The position numbers and the translations under genes were made by a program. DNA of 61,159 bases, counting the filler, from Candidatus Omnitrophota bacterium (GTDB lineage Bacteria; Omnitrophota; Gorgyraeia; JAGLLT01): assembly GCA_023140385.1 (NCBI GenBank). It is 4 parts of 4 records of this genome, joined end to end, with 100 filler letters (N's around TTAATTAATTAA, not from the genome) between each part and the next. Parts side by side here need not be neighbours in the genome. Positions count along the whole stretch, not along the records: positions 26,108 to 52,578 come from JAGLLT010000004.1; 3 more parts are not named here. The stretch is one strand, 5' to 3'. Position 1 is the stretch's first letter; every line of letters begins with the position of its first letter. Of this stretch, positions 26,008 to 54,561 are shown piece after piece. A model generated the notes under the pieces. The model was not told the DNA's origin, did no database searches, and was given only the letters and a program-made list of their open reading frames with translations.

Positions 26008-26107
26008 NNNNNNNNNNNNNNNNNNNNNNNNNNNNNNNNNNNNNNNNNNNNTTAATTAATTAANNNNNNNNNNNNNNNNNNNNNNNNNNNNNNNNNNNNN
26101 NNNNNNN
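26008..26107. other. Artificial contig linker
   Basis: N-run with TTAATTAATTAA. Confidence 0.98.
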
Positions 26108-39497: not shown

Positions 39498-40172
39498 CTA
39501 TTTTATTTTCTTTGGCCGGCCCTTTTCTAGGCGGGTATTATTAACTTTGAATTTGTCCTCCATTTGTTTTATAAACTTCCTGGTTCCCAAGAATAACTGC
39601 TTGAATACTATGTTGCTTATACCTTTTTCTTTATCTAACAGTAAACGCCGGTATTCCCTCTGTCTTTGTTTATCATTATATCCTATCTCATCATAGTATA
39701 TATCTTGGTCTGTTAAGCCATCTTCTTTGCCATAGGCATAGTAGTTATAGCTTGAGTGCTGGTATTTTTCCGCCGAGTTAACTATCTTTGCTTTAACAGG
39801 ATTGCGTTCTATATACAAACCACACGCAAGCAAGTATTCACTTCTTTCTATTAATAGACTCTTAAATCGGTCTTGCCAGAAGTGTCCCGCATAGCCATAC
39901 TTCCTTTTATAATGATTATAATAAAGAAGGTTAATCCTTTTCATTAGTTTAGACAATTCTGTTAATTTATTTGTCTCTATAATCAAATGAACATGGTTAT
40001 TCATTAGGCAGTAATGATATAGCTTAAATGGTTGTTCTTCTTTTAGTTGCTTCACTATTTTTTTATACGTCTTGAAATCTGCCTCATCATGAAAGACCCG
40101 CTGTTTATTGTTTCCTCTGGTGAGTATATGAAAGAGCCCCTCTTCTGTATATATCCTTGCTCTTCTGGGCAT
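39498..40172 (-). CDS. REP-associated tyrosine transposase-like protein (Y1_Tnp, HUH endonuclease)
   Basis: MPR.AR start, FHILTRGNN, NHVHL (HUH), FWQDRF, YIERNPVKA (catalytic Tyr). Confidence 0.9.
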   Translation of the reverse strand: MPRRARIYTEEGLFHILTRGNNKQRVFHDEADFKTYKKIVKQLKEEQPFKLYHYCLMNNHVHLIIETNKLTELSKLMKRINLLYYNHYKRKYGYAGHFWQDRFKSLLIERSEYLLACGLYIERNPVKAKIVNSAEKYQHSSYNYYAYGKEDGLTDQDIYYDEIGYNDKQRQREYRRLLLDKEKGISNIVFKQLFLGTRKFIKQMEDKFKVNNTRLEKGRPKKIK

Positions 40173-41169: not shown

Positions 41170-44100
41170 TTACGCGGGAACGGGTTCTTTTTCCGGGCTG
41201 GATGCCTCTTCTTTTTCGTCTACAAATTTGACGGAGACTACTTTGGAAATGCCGGATTCCTCCATTGTTATGCCGTACATAACATCCGCCATATTGATAG
41301 TTTTTTTGTTGTGAGTTATTATGATGAATTGAGAGGTTTTAATAAAATCACTTAGTACCCTGCTAAAGCGGACAACGTTAGACTCATCAAGCGGAGCGTC
41401 TATTTCATCCAACACGCAAAAAGGGCTCGGCTTTACCTTAAAGACGGCAAACAAAAGGGCGATGGCGCATAGGGCTTTTTCGCCGCCTGACATTAAAGTA
41501 ATGTTTTGAAGTTTTTTACCCGGAGGCCTGGCAATAATCTCTATGCCGCTTTCCAGTACGTTGTTTTCTTCGGTTAAGACCAGTTTGGCGTTTCCGCCGC
41601 CAAAAAGAAGTTTAAAGAACTCCTCAAAGCATACGCGTATCATCTCAAAAGTCTCTTTAAACATCTTAGTGGTTGTGCGGTTCATTTTTTGGATGGCTTT
41701 ATGCAGTGATTCTTTAGCTTCCTCAAGGTCCTGCTGTTGACGGCTCAAAAAGTCAAACCGCTCTCTTAGCTCTTCATATTCTTCAATGGCCACGAGATTC
41801 ACGCTTCCCATTGACTCCAACTGTTTTTTTAAAGCGGCTATTTCTTTCTCAATCTCCTGCCAGTCGGCATTTTTATCAATGTTAATCTCCGCCTCGCTTA
41901 AATTCACGTTGTAAGCGCTGAATGTCTTTTCGATTAAGTTTTCAATTCTGAGTGAACATTCGGTGTTTTTAACCTCAAAAGTATGCATATTATTCCTAAG
42001 GCCATTAAGCCGTTCTTGCTTATCCCTTAAGAGATTTTGCTGTTCCTTTAAGGTTTGAGAGGCGGCTTGCCTGTTCCCCTCAATTGACCGGATATTTTCT
42101 TCTAACGCCTTTTTTTCGCCGCGCAAGTTTCCGTTAAGACCGTTTAGTCTGTCAATTTCTTTTTTCAACTGTTCTATTTTTTCGCCGGAAGAGGTAATTT
42201 CTCCCTGCGAATTTAGCTGAACCGCCTCAGACTCTTCAATTGATTTTTCCAGTACACCGCAGGTATCCGCTTGATTAGCGTATAGTTTGTCAATGGATGA
42301 TAGTTCAGTATCTATTTGAGCTATCTTTACCTGTGTCTCTTGCGCCCGGCATTTTTTCTCTTCAATCAAACGCTGACTTTCCAGAATAACACTTTGCAGT
42401 TCTGTATTTTTTTGATGTACCTCAACCGCGACGTTTTCGTCCTCTTGCTGTTTATTAATCAAGCTATCTTTTTCAGCCTGAGTTTCTTCAAGTTCTGAAA
42501 TCACTAAGGTAATTTCATCTTCGTATTTCTTCAGGTCTTCTGTAACTGAATTGAGTTCCGACTCAATGTTGGCTCTCCTGATATCCTGCTGATGAATTGA
42601 CTCCTGAAGGCTTCTTTCTTTTTCAGCGAGGGATACTAACTCCTTTTCCTTAGCCAGCATTGTTTCTTTGAAAGCGGCTGATTCTTCCTCGAGTTCCGCG
42701 CATCTGAGCTGGAGTTTATTTATTTTGGCTTCCCTTCCTATTAGGCTCATTTCTTCCTTTATACGGTAACTTCCGCCAGCCAGCCCCCTCTTGGTAATTA
42801 TTTCTCCATTTCGAGTTATCATACGCAGAGTTGAGTCAGCAGACAGTCCCCTGAGGACTTCTTTAGCCATGGTAGTATCCTTTACCAGATAAGCGTCTGC
42901 CAGCAGAAACAGTACAATCTTTTTATATTCATCGGCTACTTCAATAAAATTAACAAGTGAACCCAGTGTTTTGCCGGATATTTCCGGGTCAGGTTCAGAA
43001 GCCGACTTCGTAAAGTTTTCAAGCGGTAGAAAATTAACCCAGCCCAGATTATTGGTTTTTAAAAATTCTATGGCTTCTTCAGCCTGCCGGCCGGTCTCAA
43101 CCACGATGCTTTGTACATTTATTCCGAGAGCTATTTCCATCGGGACTTCATATTCTTCTTTGACTCGTATTAAATTGGCTATCGAATCGCGCAGGCCGTC
43201 AAAAGGAAGCCGGTTTTCTTTGGCATAAATTAAAAGTGTTTTGACAGATTGCGTGTAGCCTTCAAAGCGCTCCTTCAGGTCTTTAAGAAAATTAAGTTTG
43301 GATTTTAAGGATGTTAAGAGATGATTCACATTAACACTTTTGGCCTGGAGAGAGCTAAGTGTATCTTTTGCTTTATTGGTTACCTCAAGCAGCTGCTTCT
43401 CTTCGTTTTTCAGGTTGAGCAAGCCGGTTGCTATTGTATTCTTTTTAGACTTTAGCTCATCATATTTCTCGACAGCTTGCTTGTTTTCTGTCTCAGTCTC
43501 CTCCTTCTCCAGATTAAGCCTCCTTAGGCGGGCGCTAATATTCTGCAAATTAGCTTTAATTTGTGTAAGTTCGTTACTTATTCTGGTCTCACTTGAAGCG
43601 AGCTCCACTATCTCAGACTCATCCTGAGTTACCAGGCGGCAGAACTCTTCTATTTCCGCGTTGAGACTGTTTAACAGCTCTTCATTTTCGCGTAGATTTT
43701 CGTTTTTTTTCGTGGTGCCCGCTTCTATTTGCTCTAACTCTTCTTTGGCATCCTTTATCTGGTTTTTTAGTTTACCGATCTTTTCCTCGTTGGAATTTTT
43801 TTGTTCTGACACATACGTTATTCTGTCATCGAGTTCTTTAATCCTTTCCGCGTCCATATCGAGCCTTGAACTGTTTTTTTCAATCTCACTCGCTGTGCTT
43901 ATCATATTTGTTTTAAAAACAGACAGCTTCTCTTCTATTTCCTGAAGACGGTTTCTTTGAAAGTTAACTTTTTTGTCTATGTCGGTAATACTATTGATAA
44001 AAGAGATTTCTTTCTCTTTAAGGCTGTCCTTTTCAGAAACCGAGGTATTGTTTTCATTTTTGAGTAAGAGATACCCCCGGTAAGAATTTTTTACATCAAG

Positions 44101-44772
44101 GCCCTTAAGCCGTTCAAATCTTTCTTTATATCTTTCCGCCTTGCGCGCCTGTCGCTCTATCGATTTTATTTGACGCGATACTTCAAGCATAACGTCATTT
44201 AAACGCTGTAAATTAGTGACGGTATGCTCCAGTTTTCTCAGGGCTTCCGCCTTTTTTGATTTGAATCTGGTAATTCCGGCCGCCTCTTCAAAGATATGCC
44301 TTCTATCTTCCGGCCGTGTACTTAGTATCAGGTCTATCTTGCCCTGCTCAATGAGAGAGTAAGATACCGTGCCGACACCGGTTCCGTGAAATAATCCCTG
44401 TATATCTTTTAACCTTACTCTGGTTTTATTTAACAGGTATTCGCTTTCGCCTGATCTATGGACTCTCCGGGTTATGGTTACTTCATCGTAATCTATAGGC
44501 AGAGCTTTACTTTCATTAGAGAATGTTAAAGAAACCTCAGCTATATTTATTGGATCCCGGGTATTGGTGCCGTTGAAGATAACATCTTCCATAGAAACTC
44601 CGCGCATCGCCGATGGCCTCTGTTCGCCCAGTACCCACTTTATAGAGTCGGCTATATTTGATTTGCCGCAGCCATTAGGCCCAACGATGGCGGTAACGCC
44701 CGGTTCAAAATCTATCCTGGTCTTCTCGGCAAAAGATTTAAAACCAAAAAGTTCTAATTTTTTCAATCGCAT
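41170..44772 (-). CDS. smc: Chromosome segregation protein SMC
   Basis: GFKSF, GPNGCGKSN, long coiled coils with hinge, MSGGEK, LDEIDAPLD. Confidence 0.97.
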   Translation of the reverse strand: MRLKKLELFGFKSFAEKTRIDFEPGVTAIVGPNGCGKSNIADSIKWVLGEQRPSAMRGVSMEDVIFNGTNTRDPINIAEVSLTFSNESKALPIDYDEVTITRRVHRSGESEYLLNKTRVRLKDIQGLFHGTGVGTVSYSLIEQGKIDLILSTRPEDRRHIFEEAAGITRFKSKKAEALRKLEHTVTNLQRLNDVMLEVSRQIKSIERQARKAERYKERFERLKGLDVKNSYRGYLLLKNENNTSVSEKDSLKEKEISFINSITDIDKKVNFQRNRLQEIEEKLSVFKTNMISTASEIEKNSSRLDMDAERIKELDDRITYVSEQKNSNEEKIGKLKNQIKDAKEELEQIEAGTTKKNENLRENEELLNSLNAEIEEFCRLVTQDESEIVELASSETRISNELTQIKANLQNISARLRRLNLEKEETETENKQAVEKYDELKSKKNTIATGLLNLKNEEKQLLEVTNKAKDTLSSLQAKSVNVNHLLTSLKSKLNFLKDLKERFEGYTQSVKTLLIYAKENRLPFDGLRDSIANLIRVKEEYEVPMEIALGINVQSIVVETGRQAEEAIEFLKTNNLGWVNFLPLENFTKSASEPDPEISGKTLGSLVNFIEVADEYKKIVLFLLADAYLVKDTTMAKEVLRGLSADSTLRMITRNGEIITKRGLAGGSYRIKEEMSLIGREAKINKLQLRCAELEEESAAFKETMLAKEKELVSLAEKERSLQESIHQQDIRRANIESELNSVTEDLKKYEDEITLVISELEETQAEKDSLINKQQEDENVAVEVHQKNTELQSVILESQRLIEEKKCRAQETQVKIAQIDTELSSIDKLYANQADTCGVLEKSIEESEAVQLNSQGEITSSGEKIEQLKKEIDRLNGLNGNLRGEKKALEENIRSIEGNRQAASQTLKEQQNLLRDKQERLNGLRNNMHTFEVKNTECSLRIENLIEKTFSAYNVNLSEAEINIDKNADWQEIEKEIAALKKQLESMGSVNLVAIEEYEELRERFDFLSRQQQDLEEAKESLHKAIQKMNRTTTKMFKETFEMIRVCFEEFFKLLFGGGNAKLVLTEENNVLESGIEIIARPPGKKLQNITLMSGGEKALCAIALLFAVFKVKPSPFCVLDEIDAPLDESNVVRFSRVLSDFIKTSQFIIITHNKKTINMADVMYGITMEESGISKVVSVKFVDEKEEASSPEKEPVPA

Positions 44773-44833
44773 AAAGACACATTTCCTCCGTTAAAAAAAC
44801 GGTTTAAACTATAAAATCCCCCCAACATAATAA

Positions 44834-44862
44834 AATATAGCATAATCTTTCATATCTGTCAA
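44834..44862 (-). promoter_or_regulatory. Candidate sigma70 promoter for smc (TTGACA-17-TATATT, extended -10)
   Basis: Hexamers at 44857-62 and 44834-39. Confidence 0.6.
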
Positions 44863-44910
44863 GGCTACAAACAGTTATGTGAATTTTTGTTTTTTTCATC
44901 ATTAATACAG

Positions 44911-44948
44911 GTACTACATATTGTGGTCTTAGGAGCTATATGTTGTGG
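44911..44948. promoter_or_regulatory. Tandem NrdR-box-like sites
   Basis: GTACTACATATTGTGG (44911-26) and GAGCTATATGTTGTGG (44933-48), 22 bp apart, resembling the consensus acaCwAtATaTwGtgt. Confidence 0.55.
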
Positions 44949-46159
44949 TTTGGGGAATTTTTTAACTTTTTCGTCAAGGCGGGAACAATCTGAAAGAGAT
45001 CACCTACAACTCTGTAATTGGCAACATTAAATATAGGGGCATGAGGGTCTTTATTTATAGCAATAATTACTTTCGAAGACTGCATACCTACTAAATGCTG
45101 GATTTGGCCGGAGATACCGCAGGCAATGTAAATTTTAGGGCAAACCGTACGTCCCGTTTGTCCGACCTGATGGGAGTATGGAATCCAGCCTTCATCAACA
45201 ACTGAACGAGTCGCGCCTATAGCCGCGTTAAGAACCTTGGCCAGTTCTTCAATTATTTTGAAGTTTTCTTCTGAACCAACACCTCTTCCGCCGGCTACAA
45301 TAATATCCGCTTCGGTAATATTTATCGTTTCCTCTATTTCTTCAACTATATCTTTTAATATACTCCGCGGAGAATTAAATAAGGCGGTATCGATGTTTTC
45401 TTCAATAATTACGCCTTTTTTTGTATGATCCTCGCCCGCCTCCTGAAACACCTTATGACGAACAGTGGCCATTTGAGGACGGTGGTTTTTGCAGACAATA
45501 GTGGCCATTATGTTACCGCCAAAGGCCGGCCGCGTCTGCAAAAGCAGTCCACTTTTCTTGTCTATCTCGAGGCCTGTGCAGTCAGCCGTTAAACCCGTGT
45601 TTAATTTTATCGCCAGACGGGGAATTAGAGAGCGGCCGATTGTTGTTGCTCCGGCTAAAATTATCTCCGGCTTGTACTTTTTAGCAAGTTCTTCGATAAC
45701 TACAGAATAAGGTTCACTTTGATAGTGCGTAAGCTCCGCGTTCTCAACAATGATAACCTGATCAGCCCCGCGCCATATTAAACACTGAGCTTCGTCTTTT
45801 ACGTTACTGCCTAATAAAACGGCGGTTACTTTAGTTCCAAGCTCATCCGCCAGCTGACGCGCTTTATAAAGCAATTCAAAAGAAACAGGCTGCAGCTTAT
45901 TATTTTTTTGCTCGGCCATAATCCAGACACCCTTAGCCTCATTCAGACTTATTACCGAAGAGAAACCGGCTTTTTTTTCTATCTCTATGGCATTGAATTT
46001 GCAGGCGCCGGCACAAGCAGCACACAAGGTACACTTGTCATAGTCAATGACCGCTTTTGATGATTTCATGGAAATGGCGTTAAAGGCACAGCTATTTACG
46101 CAAAGGCCGCAGCCAACACATTTATCTTTTAATATGGTAATTTTCTTTAAAACTTTCAA
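44936..46159 (-). CDS. etfA: Electron transfer flavoprotein alpha subunit with N-terminal 2x[4Fe-4S] ferredoxin domain
   Basis: CVGCGLCVNSC and CTLCAACAGAC; GLTADCT, RPAFGGN, QVGQTG, GISGQIQH. Confidence 0.95.
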   Translation of the reverse strand: MKVLKKITILKDKCVGCGLCVNSCAFNAISMKSSKAVIDYDKCTLCAACAGACKFNAIEIEKKAGFSSVISLNEAKGVWIMAEQKNNKLQPVSFELLYKARQLADELGTKVTAVLLGSNVKDEAQCLIWRGADQVIIVENAELTHYQSEPYSVVIEELAKKYKPEIILAGATTIGRSLIPRLAIKLNTGLTADCTGLEIDKKSGLLLQTRPAFGGNIMATIVCKNHRPQMATVRHKVFQEAGEDHTKKGVIIEENIDTALFNSPRSILKDIVEEIEETINITEADIIVAGGRGVGSEENFKIIEELAKVLNAAIGATRSVVDEGWIPYSHQVGQTGRTVCPKIYIACGISGQIQHLVGMQSSKVIIAINKDPHAPIFNVANYRVVGDLFQIVPALTKKLKNSPNHNI

Positions 46160-46959
46160 TTATGCTCCTTTATAACCTGAGCTAACTTTTCCGCGATATC
46201 AGGTATCTCGCCTTCAATAATCAACCCCTCTTCTCTTTGGGGCGGAGAAAAAATCTTCATCACCTGTGTCGGAGAACCATCAAGCCCCAGATACTCCGGC
46301 TTAACATCCAAATCATCGACTGTTAAAACTTTTATTTCCGCCTTTTTTGCCTTCATCATCCCTCTTAATGAGGGTATCCTTGGTTCGTTTATTTCTTTTA
46401 CGACAGTTAGTAGGCATGGCAGGCTTACTTCAATTACTTCATAACCTTCCTCAATCAACCTTTCAGCGGTTATCTTACCGTTTTTCAGGGCACTAATCTT
46501 TTTAACGTAGGTAACCTGAGGTATATCCAGATGGATTGAGATACCCGGCCCTACCTGCGCCGTATCTCCGTCAGCCGCCTGTTTGCCGCAGATTATCAGA
46601 TTATAACCTTTTATTGTTTCTATAGCTTTAGCTATAGTATAGCTGGTAGCCCAGGTATCACTGCCGGCAAATGCCCTGTCCGATAATAAGATACCTTCGT
46701 CGGCTCCCATTGCTATAGCCTCCCGTAAGACGCTTTCCGCTTGAGGAGGCCCCATACTTAATGCTGTAACTCTGCCGCCGTATTTTTCTTTCAGGAGCAC
46801 TCCCTCTTCCACAGCGTATCTGTCAAAGGGGTTCATGATTGACTCTACTCCCTCGCGTATAAGAGTGTTGGTTTCGGGGTCTATTTTTACGTCTGTTGTA
46901 TCCGGAACCTGTTTTACACAAACTATAATATTTAAGGTTTTTTTATCTTCCATAAGCAC
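46156..46959 (-). CDS. etfB: Electron transfer flavoprotein beta subunit (bifurcating-type motifs)
   Basis: VKQVPDT, NPFD, DRAFAGSDTWAT, GKQAADGDTAQVGP, GSPT; start may be ATG 46953. Confidence 0.95.
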   Translation of the reverse strand: MLMEDKKTLNIIVCVKQVPDTTDVKIDPETNTLIREGVESIMNPFDRYAVEEGVLLKEKYGGRVTALSMGPPQAESVLREAIAMGADEGILLSDRAFAGSDTWATSYTIAKAIETIKGYNLIICGKQAADGDTAQVGPGISIHLDIPQVTYVKKISALKNGKITAERLIEEGYEVIEVSLPCLLTVVKEINEPRIPSLRGMMKAKKAEIKVLTVDDLDVKPEYLGLDGSPTQVMKIFSPPQREEGLIIEGEIPDIAEKLAQVIKEHN

Positions 46960-46987
46960 TCTTTTAGGTTAATGACTTCCCTTAAGC

Positions 46988-48148
46988 TCAAGATCGTTTT
47001 TTTCGGGACTCTTTAATTAGGCTGGAAGCGATAATGTTTCGCTGTATTTGATTGGTGCCTTCGTAAATTTGGGTTATCTTAGCGTCGCGCATATACTTTT
47101 CTATAGGATAATCCTTCATATATCCGTAACCGCCGTAAATCTGGATACAGTCGACGGTAACCTTCATCGCCACGTCGGAAGCATACATTTTAGACATAGC
47201 TGACGGGCGGGAAGTATTGGTTTTACCGGCATCAATCATTCTTGCTGTCGAATAGATGAGCGCGCGGGCGGCTTCAATTTGCGTAGTCATATCGGCCAGC
47301 ATAAATTGTATGCCCTGAAAGCCGGCAATAAACTTACCAAACTGCTTTCTCTCACAAGCATAATTTACGGTTAAATCCAACGCTCCCTGGGCAATACCCA
47401 AAGCCTGGGCGGCAACACCCGGACGTGAAACATCAAAGGTTTTCATTGTTATAATAAAACCCATTCCCTCTCTGCTTAATAAGTTTTCAGCGGGCACCCG
47501 GCATTCATTAAAAATTAACTCTGAAGTAGTGCTGGCCCTGATACCTAATTTGTCTTCTTTTTTCCCAAATGAAAAACCTTTTGTGCCCTTTTCAACTATA
47601 AAAGCGCTGGCCCCCCTCGCCCCCTTCGCTTTATTAGTCATAGCGATAATTACGTATACATCAGCAACTTCACCGTTAGTAATAAAGTGCTTTGTTCCGT
47701 TTAATATATAGTGGTCTCCGTCTTTTTTCGCCGTAGTACTGATAGCTGAAGCGTCACTGCCGGCTCCCGGTTCGGTAACCGCAAAAGCGGCCAATTTTTT
47801 ACCACTGGCCAAATCCGGCAAAAACTTCTTTTTTTGCTCGTCATTACCAAATAATAAAATTGGATATGTTCCCAGCGCGCTGGCCGCGTAACAAACGGAA
47901 ATCCCGCCGCAGGCCTTTGAGAGTTCTTCAGTAACCAGGCATAACTCAAAAACGCCGCCCCCAAATCCTCCAAACTCCTCGGGAAGATAAACGCCGAAAA
48001 GGTCGCTGTCGGCCAATGTTTTCATTATCTCATAAGGAAACTCACTTTTTTCATCGAGCTCAGCCGCTACAGGCCGAATCTTTTCTTCGGCTATTTTACG
48101 GGATAAATCCCGCATCATCATTTGTTCCTCAGTTAATAAGTAATCCAT
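46988..48148 (-). CDS. Short-chain acyl-CoA dehydrogenase (Bcd-like)
   Basis: [39 protein letters not shown] motifs. Confidence 0.92.
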
Positions 48149-48177
48149 AGTACACAGCTCCTGCTAATTAGTTGAGG

Positions 48178-49416
48178 CTAACTAAACTTCTTTAAGGCTA
48201 TGGTCGCGTTGTGGCCGCCAAAACCCAGGCCATTTGATATAGCAACGTTTATATCTTTTTTTCGAACTTTATTTGGAACATAATCAAGATCGCAATCAGG
48301 ATCCGGATATTGATAATTAATGGTAGGAAGTATAACGCCCTCTTTTAAAGAAATTGCGGTGGCAATAGCTTCTACGGCACCGGCAGCGCCTAACATATGA
48401 CCCGTCATAGATTTAATTGAACTTACGGCTAATTTTCGCGATGAATCTTTGAAAACGGCTTTGATGGCCATAGTTTCCACTTTGTCATTTAAACTGGTAG
48501 ATGTCCCGTGGGCGTTGATATAATCAACCTCGTCATAGTTTATACCGGCATCGGTTAGGGCTGCCTCCATTGAAGCGATAGCTCCTTTGGCTTCAGGGTC
48601 CGGCGCGGTCATATGATAAGCATCGCAGGTTGCGCCATAGCCAACCAACTCGGCAATAATGGGGGCCCCTCTTTTCTTTGCTAAATCAAAAGACTCCAAA
48701 ACAAGGATACCGGCTCCTTCAGCCATTACAAATCCATCTCTTTCTTTATCAAAAGGACGGCTGGCATGCCGGGGATCATCATTTCGCGTGGAAAGCGCCT
48801 TCGCTGAACAAAAACCTCCAACTCCAAGAGGACAAATACAGTTTTCCGTACCGCCGGCCAGCATAATATCCGCCCTACCCGCCTGAATTAATCTAAAGGC
48901 CTCTCCGATAGCATGATTGCTTGAGGCGCAAGCCGTAACTATCGCGAAGTTTGGCCCTTTCAGATTGTAATTAATAGCTATTTGTCCCGGCGCCATATTG
49001 ACAATAAGCATGGGTATTAAAAAAGGAGAAATTCTTTTTGGACCTCTTTCAAGCAGAATTGTATGCTGCTTTTCTATAGTCATAAGCCCGCCGATACCGG
49101 AACCCATTACGCAGCCGATACGTTCCGGCTCAATTTTATCAAAGTCAATTCCCGCGTCCTCAACAGCCTGTTTGGCAGCAACCACCGCGTATTGAACAAA
49201 GCCATCCATTTTCCTTAGTTCTTTGGAGTTTATTAATCCGGAGGGATCAAAATCTTTTACTTCACCGGCTATTTGCGCCGCGTATTGCGATACATCAAAT
49301 TTAGTAATTCTACCAATTCCGCTATAGCCGCTTATAAGAGACTGCCAGAACTCTTGTTTATTATTCCCGATAGGCGTAATCACACCTACGCCGGTAATAA
49401 CTACACGATTACCCAT
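48178..49416 (-). CDS. fabF: 3-oxoacyl-ACP synthase II
   Basis: TACASS, NAHGTST, KSMTGHMLGAAG, GFGGHN. Confidence 0.97.
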   Translation of the reverse strand: MGNRVVITGVGVITPIGNNKQEFWQSLISGYSGIGRITKFDVSQYAAQIAGEVKDFDPSGLINSKELRKMDGFVQYAVVAAKQAVEDAGIDFDKIEPERIGCVMGSGIGGLMTIEKQHTILLERGPKRISPFLIPMLIVNMAPGQIAINYNLKGPNFAIVTACASSNHAIGEAFRLIQAGRADIMLAGGTENCICPLGVGGFCSAKALSTRNDDPRHASRPFDKERDGFVMAEGAGILVLESFDLAKKRGAPIIAELVGYGATCDAYHMTAPDPEAKGAIASMEAALTDAGINYDEVDYINAHGTSTSLNDKVETMAIKAVFKDSSRKLAVSSIKSMTGHMLGAAGAVEAIATAISLKEGVILPTINYQYPDPDCDLDYVPNKVRKKDINVAISNGLGFGGHNATIALKKFS

Positions 49417-49452
49417 AATTGCATCCTTAGACTTAAGTACCCGGAGAGCCGG

Positions 49453-49686
49453 CTACTTCTTTGCGTTTTCTATATATTTTATAGCTAAATCCACGGTGGT
49501 CATCTTTTCCGCTTCTTCATCCGGAATCTCTATTCCAAACTCATCCTCTAAAGCCATCACTAATTCCACCGTATCCAGAGAGTCCGCCCCCAGATCATCA
49601 ATGAATGACGATTTGGAAGTTATCTCTTCCTTTTTAACACCCAACTGCTCAGCAATTATTGATTTAATCTTTTCCTCTGTTGACAT
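49453..49686 (-). CDS. acpP: Acyl carrier protein
   Basis: [17 protein letters not shown]. Confidence 0.98.
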
Positions 49687-49701
49687 ATACTACTCCTCCC
49701 T

Positions 49702-49775
49702 TTAATGAGTCCCGCCGTAGCGGGACGCCTGCCTGCCGTCAGACAGGAATTAATCCCAAAACTTAAACAAGGGAT
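49702..49775 (-). repeat. Palindromic intergenic repeat, copy D (74 bp)
   Basis: Minus strand ATCCCTTGTTTAAGTTTTGGGA-TTAATT-CCTGTCTGACGGCAGGCAGG-CG-TCCCGCTACGGCGGGA-CTCATTAA, then AGGGAGGAG RBS of acpP. Confidence 0.9.
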
Positions 49776-49790
49776 ATTTTAATTTACTCC

Positions 49791-50531
49791 CTACATCAAC
49801 ATCCCGCCGTCTACCTGAATTACCTGTCCTGTGATATATTTAGACTGCGCTGATGATAAAAAAAGTACCAAATCGGCTATGTCCGCGGCCTCTCCAAACC
49901 TTCTAAGAGGTATTGTTTTTAACATCGCCTCCTTAACTTCTTCAGGCAGGCGTTCGGTCATTTTAGTAATAATGTACCCGGGAGCTATAGCGTTAACCCT
50001 TATTCCTTTTGAACCCAGCTCTTTGGCAACGGACTTTGTCAGACCTATTAATCCGGCTTTTGAAGCTGAATAATTTGACTGCCCGGCGTTACCCATAATT
50101 CCTATAATAGAAGCCATATTAATAATGACCCCATCTTTCTGCCTAAGCATCGGACGTGTTACCGCCTTAATAAAATTGAATGCTCCTTTTAGATTAATGG
50201 CCAGCACACTATCCCACTCAACCTCACTCATCCGAAGAAGCAGTTTGTCACGGGTAATCCCGGCATTATTGATAAGTATATCTATCTTTTTGAATTTGTC
50301 AAGCGTCTTATTGATTAAATCCTGAACCCCCCGATGGTCTATTACGTTAATCATTGAAGACATAATTTTCACGTTGAATTTTTCTAACTCAGAGCAGGCT
50401 TCTTTCAGCGCCTCTTGATTAACATCGCAAATCATAAGGTCAGAACCATTCTCCGCGAGTTTCTCCGCTATTTTCCTTCCGATTCCTTGAGCTGCTCCGG
50501 TAACTATTGACAGCTTTCCTTTTAATATCAT
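49791..50531 (-). CDS. fabG: 3-oxoacyl-ACP reductase
   Basis: TGAAQGIG, NNAGITRD, YSASK, VDGG. Confidence 0.96.
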   Translation of the reverse strand: MILKGKLSIVTGAAQGIGRKIAEKLAENGSDLMICDVNQEALKEACSELEKFNVKIMSSMINVIDHRGVQDLINKTLDKFKKIDILINNAGITRDKLLLRMSEVEWDSVLAINLKGAFNFIKAVTRPMLRQKDGVIINMASIIGIMGNAGQSNYSASKAGLIGLTKSVAKELGSKGIRVNAIAPGYIITKMTERLPEEVKEAMLKTIPLRRFGEAADIADLVLFLSSAQSKYITGQVIQVDGGMLM

Positions 50532-51472
50532 TTGGCAAACTCCTTCTCTATGCGCCGAATGTCTTCTAAGTTAGCCGCGTTTGAAACTTTTAATTCGGGG
50601 TTGATTCTTTTTAATAAACCCCTTAATATCTGCCCGGGGCCTATCTCAAAAAAAATCCGGCATTCTCTGCCCGCGATATTTTCAACTGACTTTTGCCAGA
50701 AGGTAGTATGATTAACCTGTCGAAATAGATTTTCCTTTATCAGCGCCGGCTCATTTTCATCCCGGGCGGTAACATTAAAGATAACTTTCCCTTTGGGAGG
50801 CGCAATATTGACTTTTTCAAGTTCCTCCTTCAGGCTTTCACTGGCAGATGTCATAAGCTCTGAGTGAAAGGGGCCGGATACTTTAAGAACGATTACTTTT
50901 TTAGCGCCGGCTTCAATAGCCTTAACCTTCGCCTTCTCGATATCATCCTCTCTTCCGGAAATAACTACCTGCCCGGGACAGTTAAGGTTGGCTACGTATG
51001 TTTTTGTGAGTTGAGCAACCTCTTTAGCCTGAGCCGGGCTAAGGCCTATAATAGATATCATTTTGCCGGGGTTTTTTATTGATGCCTCCCGCATTAACTT
51101 GCCTCTCTTGCTTACCAGCGCGACGGCCTCCTCAAAACTCATACTGCTTGCTGATGTTAAAGCGCTATATTCTCCCAAGCTTAAGCCGGCAAAAAAATTA
51201 GCACTAACCATTATCCCAACTTCCTTTAGCGCCTCTAACGCGGCTATACTGGTTGTCAGGATAGCCGGCTGGGATATTTCCGTACTCGCGAGTTTATCCG
51301 CCGGCCCTTCAAAACAGATACCGCTTAGGCTATAACCCAAAATCTCGTCCGCCTTGTCAAAAATATCTTTCGCGCCCTTAAAGTTATCATATAAGTCTTT
51401 ACCCATGCCCGGGTATTGGGCCCCTTGGCCCGGAAAAATAAAGGCAATTTTTTCTTCTATACTTTTTACCAT
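50528..51472 (-). CDS. fabD: Malonyl-CoA:ACP transacylase
   Basis: FPGQGAQ, GLSLGEY, SGPFHS, EIGPG. Confidence 0.96.
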   Translation of the reverse strand: MVKSIEEKIAFIFPGQGAQYPGMGKDLYDNFKGAKDIFDKADEILGYSLSGICFEGPADKLASTEISQPAILTTSIAALEALKEVGIMVSANFFAGLSLGEYSALTSASSMSFEEAVALVSKRGKLMREASIKNPGKMISIIGLSPAQAKEVAQLTKTYVANLNCPGQVVISGREDDIEKAKVKAIEAGAKKVIVLKVSGPFHSELMTSASESLKEELEKVNIAPPKGKVIFNVTARDENEPALIKENLFRQVNHTTFWQKSVENIAGRECRIFFEIGPGQILRGLLKRINPELKVSNAANLEDIRRIEKEFAK

Positions 51473-52455
51473 TTTATAACACAGGCTCCCCAGGTAAGGC
51501 CGCCGCCGAAAGCTGTTAGAACCGCGATATTTCCTTTTCGTATTCGGCCCTTGATAACTGCTTCGTTTAAGGCGGTCGCGATTGAGGCGCTTGACATATT
51601 TCCATAATGTTCAATATTTGTATAGACTCTTTCATCAGAGAGTTTCAATTTTTTGCCGACCGCCCTGATTATTCTTATATTGGCTTGATGAGGCACCAGC
51701 ATATCTATGTCGTCAGGCGTCATTCCACACATTTCAAGGGCTCCAACAGCCGCCTCCGTCATTTTGGTAACTGCTACCTTGAAAAGTTCGCTTCCTTTCA
51801 TCTTAATAAAATGTAGATGTTCATTGACTGTTTGCTGGTTCGAGGGCATTTTAGAACCTCCTGCCGGAATATATAAAAGGCCGCCTTTTCTGCCGTCACT
51901 ACCAAGTAAAATTGACTGGATACCGCTATTTGTATAACCCGGCTGGAGAACGCAAGCACCGGCTCCATCTCCAAATAAGACACAGGTATTTCTGTCAGTC
52001 CAGTCCGTGATGGATGTAAGCTTCTCCGCCCCAATAAGTAAAATATTCTTATAGACTCCGCTGGCTATATACGCCCGGGCGATAGATAATCCGTACACGT
52101 AACCGGAACAAGCAGCCCCGATATCCAAAGAGGCCGCGTTAAAAGCCTTTATTTCAGCCTGAACCAGGCAGGCAGTTGAGGGAAAGTTCATATCCGGCGT
52201 AATGGTGGCCACCATAATAAGTTCTATATCAGAGGGCTTAAGCCCCGCTCCCTTAATGGCCTTTCTGGCGGCTTTAGCGGCCATAGCGGAAGTACTTTCG
52301 TCTTCAGCGGCTATCCGCCTTTGTTTTATGCCCGTTCGAGTGGTAATCCATTCATCAGAGGTATCAATCATTTTTTCCAGGTCATTATTGGTCAGTATTT
52401 TTTTTGGAAAGTAGTTGCCGATACCAGTAATCTTCATTATTTTACTTATCTTCAT
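51466..52455 (-). CDS. fabH: 3-oxoacyl-ACP synthase III
   Basis: AACSG, FGDGAGA, PHQAN, GNMSSAS, FGGGLTW. Confidence 0.96.
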   Translation of the reverse strand: MKISKIMKITGIGNYFPKKILTNNDLEKMIDTSDEWITTRTGIKQRRIAAEDESTSAMAAKAARKAIKGAGLKPSDIELIMVATITPDMNFPSTACLVQAEIKAFNAASLDIGAACSGYVYGLSIARAYIASGVYKNILLIGAEKLTSITDWTDRNTCVLFGDGAGACVLQPGYTNSGIQSILLGSDGRKGGLLYIPAGGSKMPSNQQTVNEHLHFIKMKGSELFKVAVTKMTEAAVGALEMCGMTPDDIDMLVPHQANIRIIRAVGKKLKLSDERVYTNIEHYGNMSSASIATALNEAVIKGRIRKGNIAVLTAFGGGLTWGACVIKW

Positions 52456-52479
52456 ATCAACTCCCGGCGATGAAATCTC

Positions 52480-52578
52480 CTAACCATTTTTGACCGCGTC
52501 TACAATGTGCTGATTTACGTTATGAAGCGCGGCTTCGGCGGCTACCCTGATGGCATTTTTTATGGCCTTGGCGGATGA
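52480..52578 (-). CDS. plsX: Phosphate acyltransferase PlsX, C-terminal fragment
   Basis: Manual translation SSAKAIKNAIRVAAEAALHNVNQHIVDAVKNG*; canonical position before fabH. Confidence 0.8.
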   Translation of the reverse strand, partial: SSAKAIKNAIRVAAEAALHNVNQHIVDAVKNG

Positions 52579-52678
52579 NNNNNNNNNNNNNNNNNNNNNN
52601 NNNNNNNNNNNNNNNNNNNNNNTTAATTAATTAANNNNNNNNNNNNNNNNNNNNNNNNNNNNNNNNNNNNNNNNNNNN
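52579..52678. other. Artificial contig linker
   Basis: N-run with TTAATTAATTAA. Confidence 0.98.
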
Positions 52679-52680
52679 CC

Positions 52681-54561
52681 GGCAAGAAAAAGAAGGGTGT
52701 TGGTAAGCCTGCTCCTAAGCAGAACAGTATTTTTTTGTTTGTTGCTATAGCAAGTTTATTTTTCTTCCTTTTTCTTTATAAAAATTATGTTATGACGCAG
52801 CCTTTGACGTACGGTGAATTTTACGGGATATTGCAGGATAATAAAAATACCGGACGTATTGAGTCGGTTGTTCTTCAGGACAATATTATTCAGGGTGCAT
52901 TTTCAGACGGTAAAGAGTTTCGGGTTGTTATTCCGGCGGATGACCCTGATTTAGTCAAGCTGTTGAAGCAAAATGTAGAAGCTAAAAAATTCTCTGTTAA
53001 ATTGCCAAGTCTTTTAGGGCAGATTCTTATGGCAGTTGTTCCTATGCTGATCTTCATTGGTTTGTTTTGGGTTTTCTTTGTCAAAAGGGCAGCGCAGGAA
53101 GGAAAGCGTATTTTCAGCTTTGGCCAGAGTAAACCCTTTCAGCCAAGCAGCGGCAAGCTTAACATTACCTTTAAAGATGTAGCCGGAGTAAGTGAAGCGA
53201 AAGAAGAGCTGCAGGAGGTAATTGAATTTTTGAAAGAGCCTAAAAAGTTTCAGCGCCTGGGAGGCAAGATTCCTAAAGGTATCCTTCTTATGGGGCCTCC
53301 GGGCTGCGGCAAGACACTTTTAGCCAAAGCTGTCAGCGGAGAGGCTGGGGTTCCTTTTTTCAGCATAAGCGGCTCTGATTTTGTGGAAATGTTTGTGGGA
53401 GTAGGGGCCTCGCGGGTCAGAGACCTGTTTAGCAAAGCAAAAAAGTCAGCCAAACTCAGCGGTAAAGGAGGTATTATTTTTATTGATGAGATAGATGCCG
53501 TCGGCCGTCAGCGTTTCGCGGGTATTGGCGGAGGGCATGACGAAAGAGAGCAAACCCTTAATCAGCTTCTTTCCGAGATGGACGGCTTTAATACTCAGGA
53601 AGGGGTTATTCTGATAGCCGCCACTAACCGCCCTGATGTTTTAGATCCGGCGTTATTGCGGCCGGGCCGTTTTGACAGGCAGATAGTGGTTGACCGTCCG
53701 GACATAAAAGGAAGAGAGGCCATATTGAAGGTGCATAGCCGCACTGTGAAGCTAAGTAAAGACGTAGATCTTGCCCTTATTGCCCGGCGGACGCCCGGAT
53801 TTTCGGGAGCCGACCTGGCCAATTTAGTCAACGAAGCAGCGCTTTTGGCGGCAAGGAGTGATAAAAACGCGGTTGAGACAGAAGAGCTTGAAGCGGCTAT
53901 TGAGCGGGTTATGGCAGGACCTGAAAGGAAGTCAAAGGTTATCAGTGAGTATGAAAAATCAGTTGTCGCTTATCATGAGTCCGGACACGCGCTTCTGGCT
54001 CTTTTGATTAAAGAAGTAGATCCGCTTCATAAAGTATCCATCATACCCAGAGGAGCAAAAGCGCTGGGCTATACCTTGCAGCTTCCGCTTGAAGACAGAT
54101 ATATAGTGACCAAAAAAGAACTTATGGGCAGGCTGGCTGTTCTTTTAGGCGGGCGGGTGAGTGAAGAGTTAATCTTCAAGGAAATTTCAACCGGCGCTCA
54201 GAATGACCTGGAGGTGACTACGAATATAGCCAGAAGGATGGTCTGTGAATTTGGTATGAGTAAAAAGTTGGGACACCTTACCTTTGGCCACAGAAGAGAG
54301 CAGATATTCTTAGGCAGGGACATAGGGGAAGAGAGAAACTATAGCGAAGAAACCGCCTTATTAATTGATAAAGAGGTAAGGTTTATTGTTGATGAAGCTT
54401 ATGATAGAGCCAGCGCTTTATTGATGGAACATAAAGCTGAACTGAAAAAAATAGCCGAGAAGTTAAAGGAAGAAGAAACGCTTTACGCGGAGCAGGTGAG
54501 AAATCTCTTGGGGTTGAAGGATAATGGAAACCAGGATACTGAAGATAGAAAGCCAAAATGA
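52681..54561 (+). CDS. ftsH: ATP-dependent zinc metalloprotease FtsH (5' end probably in the gap)
   Basis: Two TM helices, [18 protein letters not shown] region, HESGH zinc motif; frame open to the gap. Confidence 0.97.

Follow-up and report, generated by a model that had tools for sequence, protein, structure and literature searches.

An acyl-CoA dehydrogenase and electron-transfer flavoprotein at the end of a fatty-acid synthesis operon: a candidate enoyl-ACP reductase of Omnitrophota

The fab operon and its acd-etfB-etfA genes

On the minus strand of contig C34 from a Candidatus Omnitrophota genome (positions 26108-52578 of the window, by which we mean the whole 61,159-nucleotide stretch of DNA analysed), we observed a fatty-acid synthesis (fab) operon that ends in three genes, acd, etfB and etfA. 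They encode an acyl-CoA dehydrogenase-like flavoenzyme (Acd) and the two subunits of an electron-transfer flavoprotein (Etf), which we consider here as a candidate for the enoyl-acyl carrier protein (enoyl-ACP) reductase of this lineage. The genome (G000) is metagenome-assembled and comprises 1.50 Mb in 57 contigs, with a completeness of 92.7%. The loci nearest to that of the window also come from Candidatus Omnitrophota, and their Acd sequences are 70-85% identical to the one described here.

An earlier sequence-only reading of this DNA had proposed a single-strand series from plsX through fabH, fabD, fabG, acpP and fabF into acd, etfB and etfA. The order and the strand hold, with the reservation that plsX is represented by a 32-residue C-terminal fragment, seen as a stub because the contig stops at position 52578. 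The products of the five genes from fabH to fabF all score above the curated NCBIfam cut-offs (Table 1). The translated fragment matches residues 299-313, at the C terminus, of the PlsX of a relative that is assigned to Pfam FA_synthesis. The finer details of that reading are borne out. The sequence and a consensus scan agree on a fabF-acd gap of 29 nucleotides in which AGGAG sits 10 nucleotides before the ATG of acd and no terminator-like site is found on the minus strand; the only two such sites on this strand lie inside fabD and inside fabF. The etfB and etfA frames overlap in TTGA, with AAGGAG upstream. The GTG start of etfB is uncertain because homology begins only at residue 9-10. The operon likely ends in the spacer between etfA and smc, judging from the promoter-like site found there.

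Acd contains the Pfam domains Acyl-CoA_dh_N, _M and _1 and is most similar among proteins of known structure to the butyryl-CoA dehydrogenase (Bcd) of C. difficile (5OL2_C, 435 bits), followed by 4L1F at 410 bits and CarC at 346 bits. Glu363 of the YEGT block, presumably the catalytic base, does not vary among 40 sequences. The large Etf subunit carries the two CxxCxxCxxxC motifs noted earlier, which are visible in its translated N terminus and coincide with a Pfam Fer4 match over residues 5-64. It aligns with CarE (6FAH_A) at 388 bits from residue 7 onward, the ferredoxin domain included. EtfB matches CarD (6FAH_B) at 266 bits, 5OL2_B at 247 bits and 4KPU_B at 245 bits, compared with at most 125 bits for canonical ETFs, and its RAFAGSDTWAT and GKQAADGDTAQVG motifs line up with the corresponding blocks in CarD and C. 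difficile EtfB.

The next Etf matches are Bcd-Etf, the lactate dehydrogenase-Etf (LctBC) and the Etfs of A. fermentans and T. maritima, all of them from bifurcating systems. Overall, the top Etf matches in the PDB score 220-388 bits, whereas canonical ETFs reach 84-185 bits, a distinction drawn from similarity; in the passages of PMC6085437 consulted, no published Etf group motifs were found. By similarity, then, CarDE and Bcd-Etf are the nearest kin of this Etf, which appears to belong with the bifurcating, two-FAD Etfs and not with the canonical group that binds AMP. The top NCBIfam models for the three subunits are AcrC, AcrB and AcrA (NF042970-72), with scores of 478 against a cut-off of 640 for AcrC on Acd, and 261 against 475 and 337 against 600 for the other two. 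No subunit reaches an NCBIfam equivalog cut-off.

The candidate can be set beside several characterized complexes. CarCDE of Acetobacterium woodii (6FAH) has the same three-subunit design, but CarC reduces phenylacrylyl-CoA in caffeate respiration, whereas the genes of the window close a fab operon. The Bcd/EtfAB complexes of C. difficile (5OL2) and A. fermentans (4L1F, 4KPU) are the nearest structural relatives, with very similar Etf cores (247 bits for EtfB and 310 bits for EtfA) and the same YEGT glutamate. Unlike the EtfA described here, that of the Bcd systems has no ferredoxin domain, and its gene sits beside thl, hbd and crt, which we do not see in the genome of the window. AcrABC of Clostridium propionicum supplies the top family names for all three subunits; no context of a lactate or acrylate pathway is seen around the genes of the window.

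Table 1. Positions of the operon genes and of the features next to them, in window coordinates
Feature	Position	Strand	Remarks
plsX, 3' end	52480..52578	-	32 codons and stop; cut by the end of contig C34
fabH, beta-ketoacyl-ACP synthase III	51466..52455	-	TIGR00747, 441 bits (cut-off 292)
fabD, malonyl-CoA:ACP transacylase	50528..51472	-	TIGR00128, 307 bits (cut-off 261)
fabG, 3-oxoacyl-ACP reductase	49791..50531	-	TIGR01830, 326 bits (cut-off 298)
acpP, acyl carrier protein with DSL motif	49453..49686	-	NF002149, 126 bits (cut-off 106)
fabF, beta-ketoacyl-ACP synthase II	48178..49416	-	TIGR03150, 651 bits (cut-off 494)
fabF-acd spacer, 29 nt	48149..48177	-	AGGAG ribosome-binding site; no terminator-like hairpin
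acd, Bcd-like ACAD-fold flavoenzyme, 386 aa	46988..48148	-	three Pfam ACAD domains; proposed enoyl-thioester reductase subunit
etfB, small Etf subunit, 267 aa	46156..46959	-	GTG start; PDB matches to bifurcating Etfs
etfA, large Etf subunit, 407 aa	44936..46159	-	TTG start; Pfam Fer4, ETF, ETF_alpha
EtfA N-terminal 2x[4Fe-4S] ferredoxin domain	45968-46147	-	residues ~5-64; Pfam Fer4
spacer after etfA, 163 nt	44773..44935	-	promoter-like TTGACA-17-TATATT (44862-44834) ahead of smc; consensus match only
smc	41170..44772	-	TIGR02168, 1014 bits; conserved downstream flank of the putative reductase slot

The window strings several contigs together, with runs of N around a ttaattaattaa linker at positions 26008-26107 and 52579-52678. 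The ftsH gene at 52735 is no true neighbour of the fab operon because contig C34 ends at 52578 and the N spacer lies between them. Downstream of smc, between ribBA and a gene of the TraB/PrgY family, we also observe a gene resembling RAYT (REP-associated tyrosine transposase; 39498-40172, minus strand), which scores 77 bits against a cut-off of 80.

Enoyl reductases in the genome and across the phylum

The ACAD-fold enzyme, the EtfA/EtfB pair and FabF are each present in a single copy in the genome by tblastn, and both the ACAD and EtfAB lie in the fab operon. The whole-genome search bears out the absence of a canonical enoyl-ACP reductase that had been noted for the visible cluster. Profile searches of the genome found neither FabI nor FabL, and the only short-chain dehydrogenase/reductase (SDR) is FabG, the single match to PF13561. 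The Pfam model for FabV gave no match in the genome, FabK and the MDR family none above cut-off, and no protein of the OYE family was found. Although the FabV model was also silent in 14 control genomes, the search works, since it detects 18 clear FabV genes elsewhere in the phylum.

Genes for the metabolism of CoA esters are likewise missing from these searches. Crotonase was not found in the genome, the thiolase model matches fabF and fabH only, and a lone 31-bit match to Hbd was not counted as a real Hbd. Type II fatty-acid synthesis thus appears from the gene content to be complete but for the enoyl reductase, with no route visible that would make or use enoyl-CoA. As an alternative, the sequence-only reading had suggested that FabH might receive short acyl-CoA primers from the complex. 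We rejected this role because thl, hbd and crt were not found in the genome. Only one FabA/FabZ domain was found in the genome, as part of a 443-residue LpxC fusion protein (L088:1471-2802, contig C46) whose gene lies in a lipid A cluster ahead of lpxA and lpxI.

To place these results in the phylum, we used a sample of 251 Omnitrophota genomes, each at least 85% complete, which supplies the denominators given here, those of families included. FabF is present in every one. Acd was found at E≤1e-60 in 154 genomes, of which 149 carry it at 62-100% identity and five have weaker matches (47% identity in G047; the others, with identities not listed, are in G065, G101, G181 and G221). We did not treat the weak ACAD matches in G047, G065, G101 and G181 as orthologous; crotonase is present in each of these four genomes. 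The FabI model matches 57 genomes, comprising approximately 43 true FabI (264-316 bits) and 14 FabL-type genes (about 145 bits) that score 312-329 bits on NF005975. The FabL model matches 56 genomes and adds 11 to the count, FabV is present in 18 (one confirmed at 597 bits on NF043048), and no FabK exceeds the cut-off in any of the 251.

Taken together, FabI, FabL and FabV occur in 84 genomes, and these overlap with the 149 Acd genomes in one case, G145. The known reductases are therefore absent from 148 of the 149, and Acd from 83 of the 84. The division runs along family lines, though it also cuts across some families. Families f10 and f11 have FabI in 12 of 12 genomes and no Acd, and family f13 has Acd in 38 of 39; family f21 contains two genomes with Acd and six with FabV. 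Switches between Acd and a known reductase occur within families f21, f26 and f31 and even within genus g92, in which G187 has FabV and G216 has Acd. Crotonase, present in 87 genomes overall, is found in 11 of the 149 with Acd. No EtfA homologue was detected in four of five FabI or FabV relatives tested, so that the Etf appears to exist only to serve Acd.

The chromosomal position occupied by these genes points in the same direction. In 47 or more of the 149 genomes with Acd, acd comes immediately after fabF on one strand, with fewer than 600 nucleotides between the two, as read by hand from coordinates with FabF taken from the best 150 of the 251 genomes' matches. In 11 of the 12 FabI genomes from the class of the window, fabI stands directly downstream of fabF. 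The gene order in G084, a genome with FabI, is fabH-fabD-fabG-acpP-fabF-fabI-smc, compared with fabH-fabD-fabG-acpP-fabF-acd-etfB-etfA-smc in the window. smc follows etfA in 12 Omnitrophota loci, fabI in G084 and fabV in G209, G088 and G145; in the last three, fabV is just upstream of smc together with a small ACP-like open reading frame. Three unrelated gene sets therefore alternate in the position between fabF and smc, which is a classic signature of non-orthologous displacement. The synteny and the complementary distribution across the phylum both favour the enoyl-ACP reductase proposed in the sequence-only reading, as do two further checks it had named, the whole-genome searches for a canonical reductase and for genes of butyrate formation or beta-oxidation, neither of which were found.

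Two features of these neighbourhoods deserve mention in their own right. The ACP-like open reading frame between fabV and smc encodes about 85 residues with approximately 30% identity to AcpP (L099:8753-9010, L094:711-932). Where acd does not follow fabF, a small gene for a GNAT acetyltransferase is found directly upstream of it (L005:7524-7985, L013:7351-7824, L014:7513-7968).

The association extends beyond Omnitrophota. A tree of 76 Acd sequences groups every Acd linked to both fab and etf genes into one clade of 41 rows with an SH-aLRT value of 98, which also includes sequences labelled as Fermentibacterota (Hyd24-12), Aegiribacteria, Spirochaetota, Cloacimonadota, Lentisphaerota, Atribacterota, Thermodesulfobacteriota and Nitrospirota. 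No such combined linkage is seen on the side of the Acd tree that holds Chloroflexota and Bacillota. Among 15 genomes of other phyla that we checked, those of Hyd24-12 and Aegiribacteria have fab-acd-etfBA and no known reductase. A fabF-rnc-acd order is conserved in KSB1, Gemmatimonadota and related metagenome-assembled genomes (L030, L033, L040, L043, L045), with Acds 62-65% identical to that of the window. We set these loci aside as wider support: the genomes concerned have ferredoxin-less EtfA only, and five of seven have a FabL-like SDR. This part of the cross-phylum synteny says little for those two reasons. In view of these FCB-type loci and of the co-occurrences with other reductases outside the phylum described below, we draw the system narrowly, as the 41-row Acd clade together with a ferredoxin-fused EtfA.

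Competing enzymes and substrates

Two proteins of the NMO family, encoded by paralogous genes outside the window on contigs C42 and C56 (L001:1441-2556 and L002:1459-2562), are the nearest thing to another reductase in the genome. Both match the FabK model, whose cut-off is 453 bits, at 148 and 122 bits. Their closest structures are 7E1Q, 7E1R and 7E1S, at 250 and 232 bits, compared with 112 and 83 bits for FabK (7L00). These structures are of H. pylori FabX, which PMC8626469 describes as an acyl-ACP dehydrogenase/isomerase of unsaturated fatty-acid synthesis with an NMO TIM barrel, a C-terminal [4Fe-4S] subdomain formed by four cysteines and a catalytic histidine. The alignments to 7E1Q are full-length, and Cys300, Cys304, Cys308 and Cys320 of FabX are conserved in both proteins, as is the histidine of the GGH motif. 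Since the four cysteines are kept and the best match is H. pylori FabX, we consider the two proteins to be of the FabX type and not NAD(P)H-dependent reductases, and unlikely to be the enoyl-ACP reductase. The presence of a FabX-type pair also suggests that Omnitrophota may make unsaturated fatty acids by "backtracking".

One could nevertheless suppose that these proteins perform enoyl-ACP reduction, either as divergent FabK or as FabX-type enzymes run in reverse with a low-potential donor such as ferredoxin, which would leave Acd-EtfBA redundant or otherwise employed. The chemistry allows for this idea, in that the FabX reaction is the reverse of the enoyl-reductase step, again according to PMC8626469. 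The distribution lends it something too. NMO-like proteins (E≤1e-25) occur patchily, in 50 of the 251 genomes, and only where FabI, FabL and FabV are absent (50 of 167, against 0 of 84). Yet neither gene is near fab genes, one adjoining hcp and the other eda, and the similarity to FabX exceeds that to FabK for both. In addition, we searched with the Pfam NMO model 60 genomes, a subset of the 101 Acd genomes that lack a match to any reductase model, and found a full-length protein in four; the other 56 gave partial cross-matches of 24-44 bits, as did FabI and FabV control genomes. At least 56 good genomes thus have FabF and Acd-EtfBA but no FabI, FabL, FabV, FabK or NMO protein. We regard reduction by the NMO proteins as quite improbable.

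A different role for Acd itself would be to oxidize acyl-ACP and so start the anaerobic synthesis of unsaturated fatty acids. ACAD-fold enzymes that act on substrates tethered to the phosphopantetheine of a carrier protein do exist, namely MbtN, RedW/PigA, AnaB (4IRN) and TcsD (6CXT), and the single, LpxC-fused FabA/FabZ domain of the genome would fit with such a role. These precedents, which serve equally for a reductive Acd on ACP, are distant from it: MbtN, RedW and PigA score 107-280 bits against cut-offs of 500-700, and AnaB and TcsD 219-227 bits in the PDB. They are also oxidative, belong to secondary metabolism and lack a bifurcating Etf of their own, whereas the Etf described here resembles those bifurcating kinds that use NADH. 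An oxidative Acd would moreover leave 148 genomes without any reductase and the exclusivity with FabI, FabL and FabV unexplained, and the FabX-type proteins already cover that function in the genome. We therefore hold this possibility to be very improbable indeed.

The strongest challenge to an ACP substrate is that Acd-EtfBA could be a conventional enoyl-CoA reductase or acyl-CoA dehydrogenase, acting on CoA esters in energy metabolism or in the supply of FabH primers, with the true enoyl-ACP reductase belonging to an unrecognized family and the position behind fabF incidental. The closest relatives of Acd are authentic CoA enzymes, as the Bcd, CarC and AcrC scores given above show, and in many Omnitrophota acd-etfBA lies away from fabF. 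Against this, crotonase is missing from 138 of the 149 genomes with Acd, and the genome of the window shows neither crotonase, thiolase or Hbd nor an MDR or OYE candidate for the unrecognized enzyme. Acd is also nearly exclusive with FabI, FabL and FabV in a phylum where FabF is universal, fabI and fabV occupy the same slot between fabF and smc, and EtfA is missing from most of the FabI and FabV relatives tested. On balance, we find a conventional CoA enzyme distinctly unlikely.

Several observations weigh against Acd-EtfBA as the reductase of fatty-acid synthesis, some of them shared with the explanations just discussed. Known or possible reductases accompany an Acd of the same clade in three genomes: in G145, fabV and acd-etfB-etfA lie side by side in divergent orientation (L099:3944-8557, contig C1), a spirochaete (G265) has FabV and a genome of Thermodesulfobacteriota (G259) a FabK-like protein of 260 bits, in the last two cases beside a ferredoxin-fused EtfA. 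The FCB-type loci with fabF-rnc-acd, with their ferredoxin-less EtfA and FabL-like SDRs, belong on the same side. Nineteen of the 251 genomes, all with FabF, have none of Acd, FabI, FabL and FabV, so that a further reductase may exist in the phylum. NMO/FabX-like proteins are found in 48 of the 154 genomes of the full Acd list, compared with none of the 84 with a known reductase, and in all three genomes of the family of the window, f1. Crotonase does occur in those 11 Acd genomes, and outside the 47 or more genomes with fabF and acd adjacent, the adjacency is absent or lies outside the matches listed.

The protein and the sample impose limits of their own. Acd looks like an ordinary Bcd homologue, with no sequence feature shown that favours ACP over CoA, and it falls well below the cut-offs of the models for carrier-protein dehydrogenases (MbtN, 107 against 700; RedW, 280 against 650; PigA, 270 against 500). 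A reductase of fatty-acid synthesis must take chains from C4 to about C18. The genome is short of completeness by 7.3%, all of the evidence is comparative, and the sampled genomes are kin; we give counts without statistics because related genomes are not independent samples. Substitutions specific to the fab/etf clade (Lys43, Arg303, Lys351 and others) and a median pI of 6.4, compared with 5.5, hint at a more basic surface. We give this hint no weight because the substitutions could not be placed on a structure without coordinates.

Two of these exceptions can be looked at more closely. In G145, the ACP-like open reading frame and smc follow fabV, and the locus may capture the replacement of one reductase by the other in progress. 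The genomes without a candidate, which include G003, G025, G039, G053, G055, G063, G085, G105 and G141, may be explained by assembly gaps or by a further type of reductase.

Weighing these points together, we conclude that Acd-EtfB-EtfA is probably the enoyl-ACP reductase of this lineage, replacing FabI, FabL or FabV. The gene content, the structure of the operon, the complementary distribution and the replacement within one slot are observed, whereas bifurcation, the direction in which the reaction runs and ACP as the carrier of the substrate are inferred. We take the substrate to be enoyl-ACP because the genes close a fab operon, no CoA-ester pathway is visible in the genome and relatives keep FabI or FabV instead.

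Possible electron transfer and significance of a proposed flavin-based reductase

The path that electrons would take through the complex can be drawn by analogy with Bcd-EtfAB and CarCDE. NADH would deliver its electrons to the FAD of EtfB. One electron would pass by way of the FAD of EtfA to that of Acd, where trans-2-enoyl-ACP would be reduced to acyl-ACP, and the other would leave through the two [4Fe-4S] clusters of the N-terminal domain of EtfA to ferredoxin. Reduced ferredoxin would then arise as a by-product of every elongation cycle. The genome encodes membrane subunits of the Rnf/Nqr type and an [FeFe]-hydrogenase, which are possible sinks for it. A bifurcating enoyl-ACP reductase of this design, in which a Bcd-like flavoenzyme would dock ACP and each two-carbon elongation would oxidize two NADH and send a low-potential electron pair to ferredoxin, is a tenable but tentative proposal for most Omnitrophota and for certain anaerobes of other phyla.

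Acd-EtfBA might also be pictured as an enoyl-ACP reductase that does not bifurcate and simply hands the electrons of NADH to the enoyl thioester. The acryloyl-CoA reductase of Clostridium propionicum reportedly passes electrons from NADH in this manner, and the best NCBIfam names for all three subunits, although below their cut-offs, are those of AcrC, AcrB and AcrA. No sequence feature proves bifurcation. On the other hand, the ferredoxin domain of EtfA aligns with that of CarE, the conserved EtfB blocks are common to proven bifurcating Etfs, and ferredoxin-linked partners are encoded in the genome. We consider simple electron transfer unlikely, though less so than the alternatives concerned with other enzymes or substrates.

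With FabI, FabL, FabV and FabK, the putative Acd-EtfBA reductase shares an inferred function, a place in the operon after fabF and before smc and a mutually exclusive distribution. To our knowledge, all known enoyl-ACP reductases, these four, are single NAD(P)H-dependent proteins. The Acd and Etf subunits have no homology to them and adopt other folds, an ACAD tetramer in Acd in place of the SDR fold of FabI, FabL and FabV or the FMN-containing NMO TIM barrel of FabK. The complex would consist of three subunits with three flavins and two iron-sulfur clusters, would use two NADH and may reduce ferredoxin. We found no description of an enoyl-ACP reductase built from ACAD and Etf in the full-text literature searched, which leaves most subscription journals outside its coverage.

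Bacterial fatty-acid synthesis relies on enoyl-ACP reductase to pull each of its cycles forward, and the enzyme is a classic target for antibiotics. If our proposal is correct, Acd-EtfBA would constitute a fifth class of this enzyme, with an unrelated fold and insensitive to inhibitors directed at FabI, and the "missing" reductase of a large uncultured phylum, and of other anaerobes, would be accounted for. It would also mean that an enzyme of the Bcd type can serve a carrier-protein substrate, which would be useful for engineered pathways of chain elongation. Should the complex bifurcate as well, a core anabolic pathway would for the first time be seen to include flavin-based electron bifurcation. 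Biosynthesis would then return energy to the cell, and the energy balance of lipid synthesis would have to be redrawn for anaerobes that are limited by energy.

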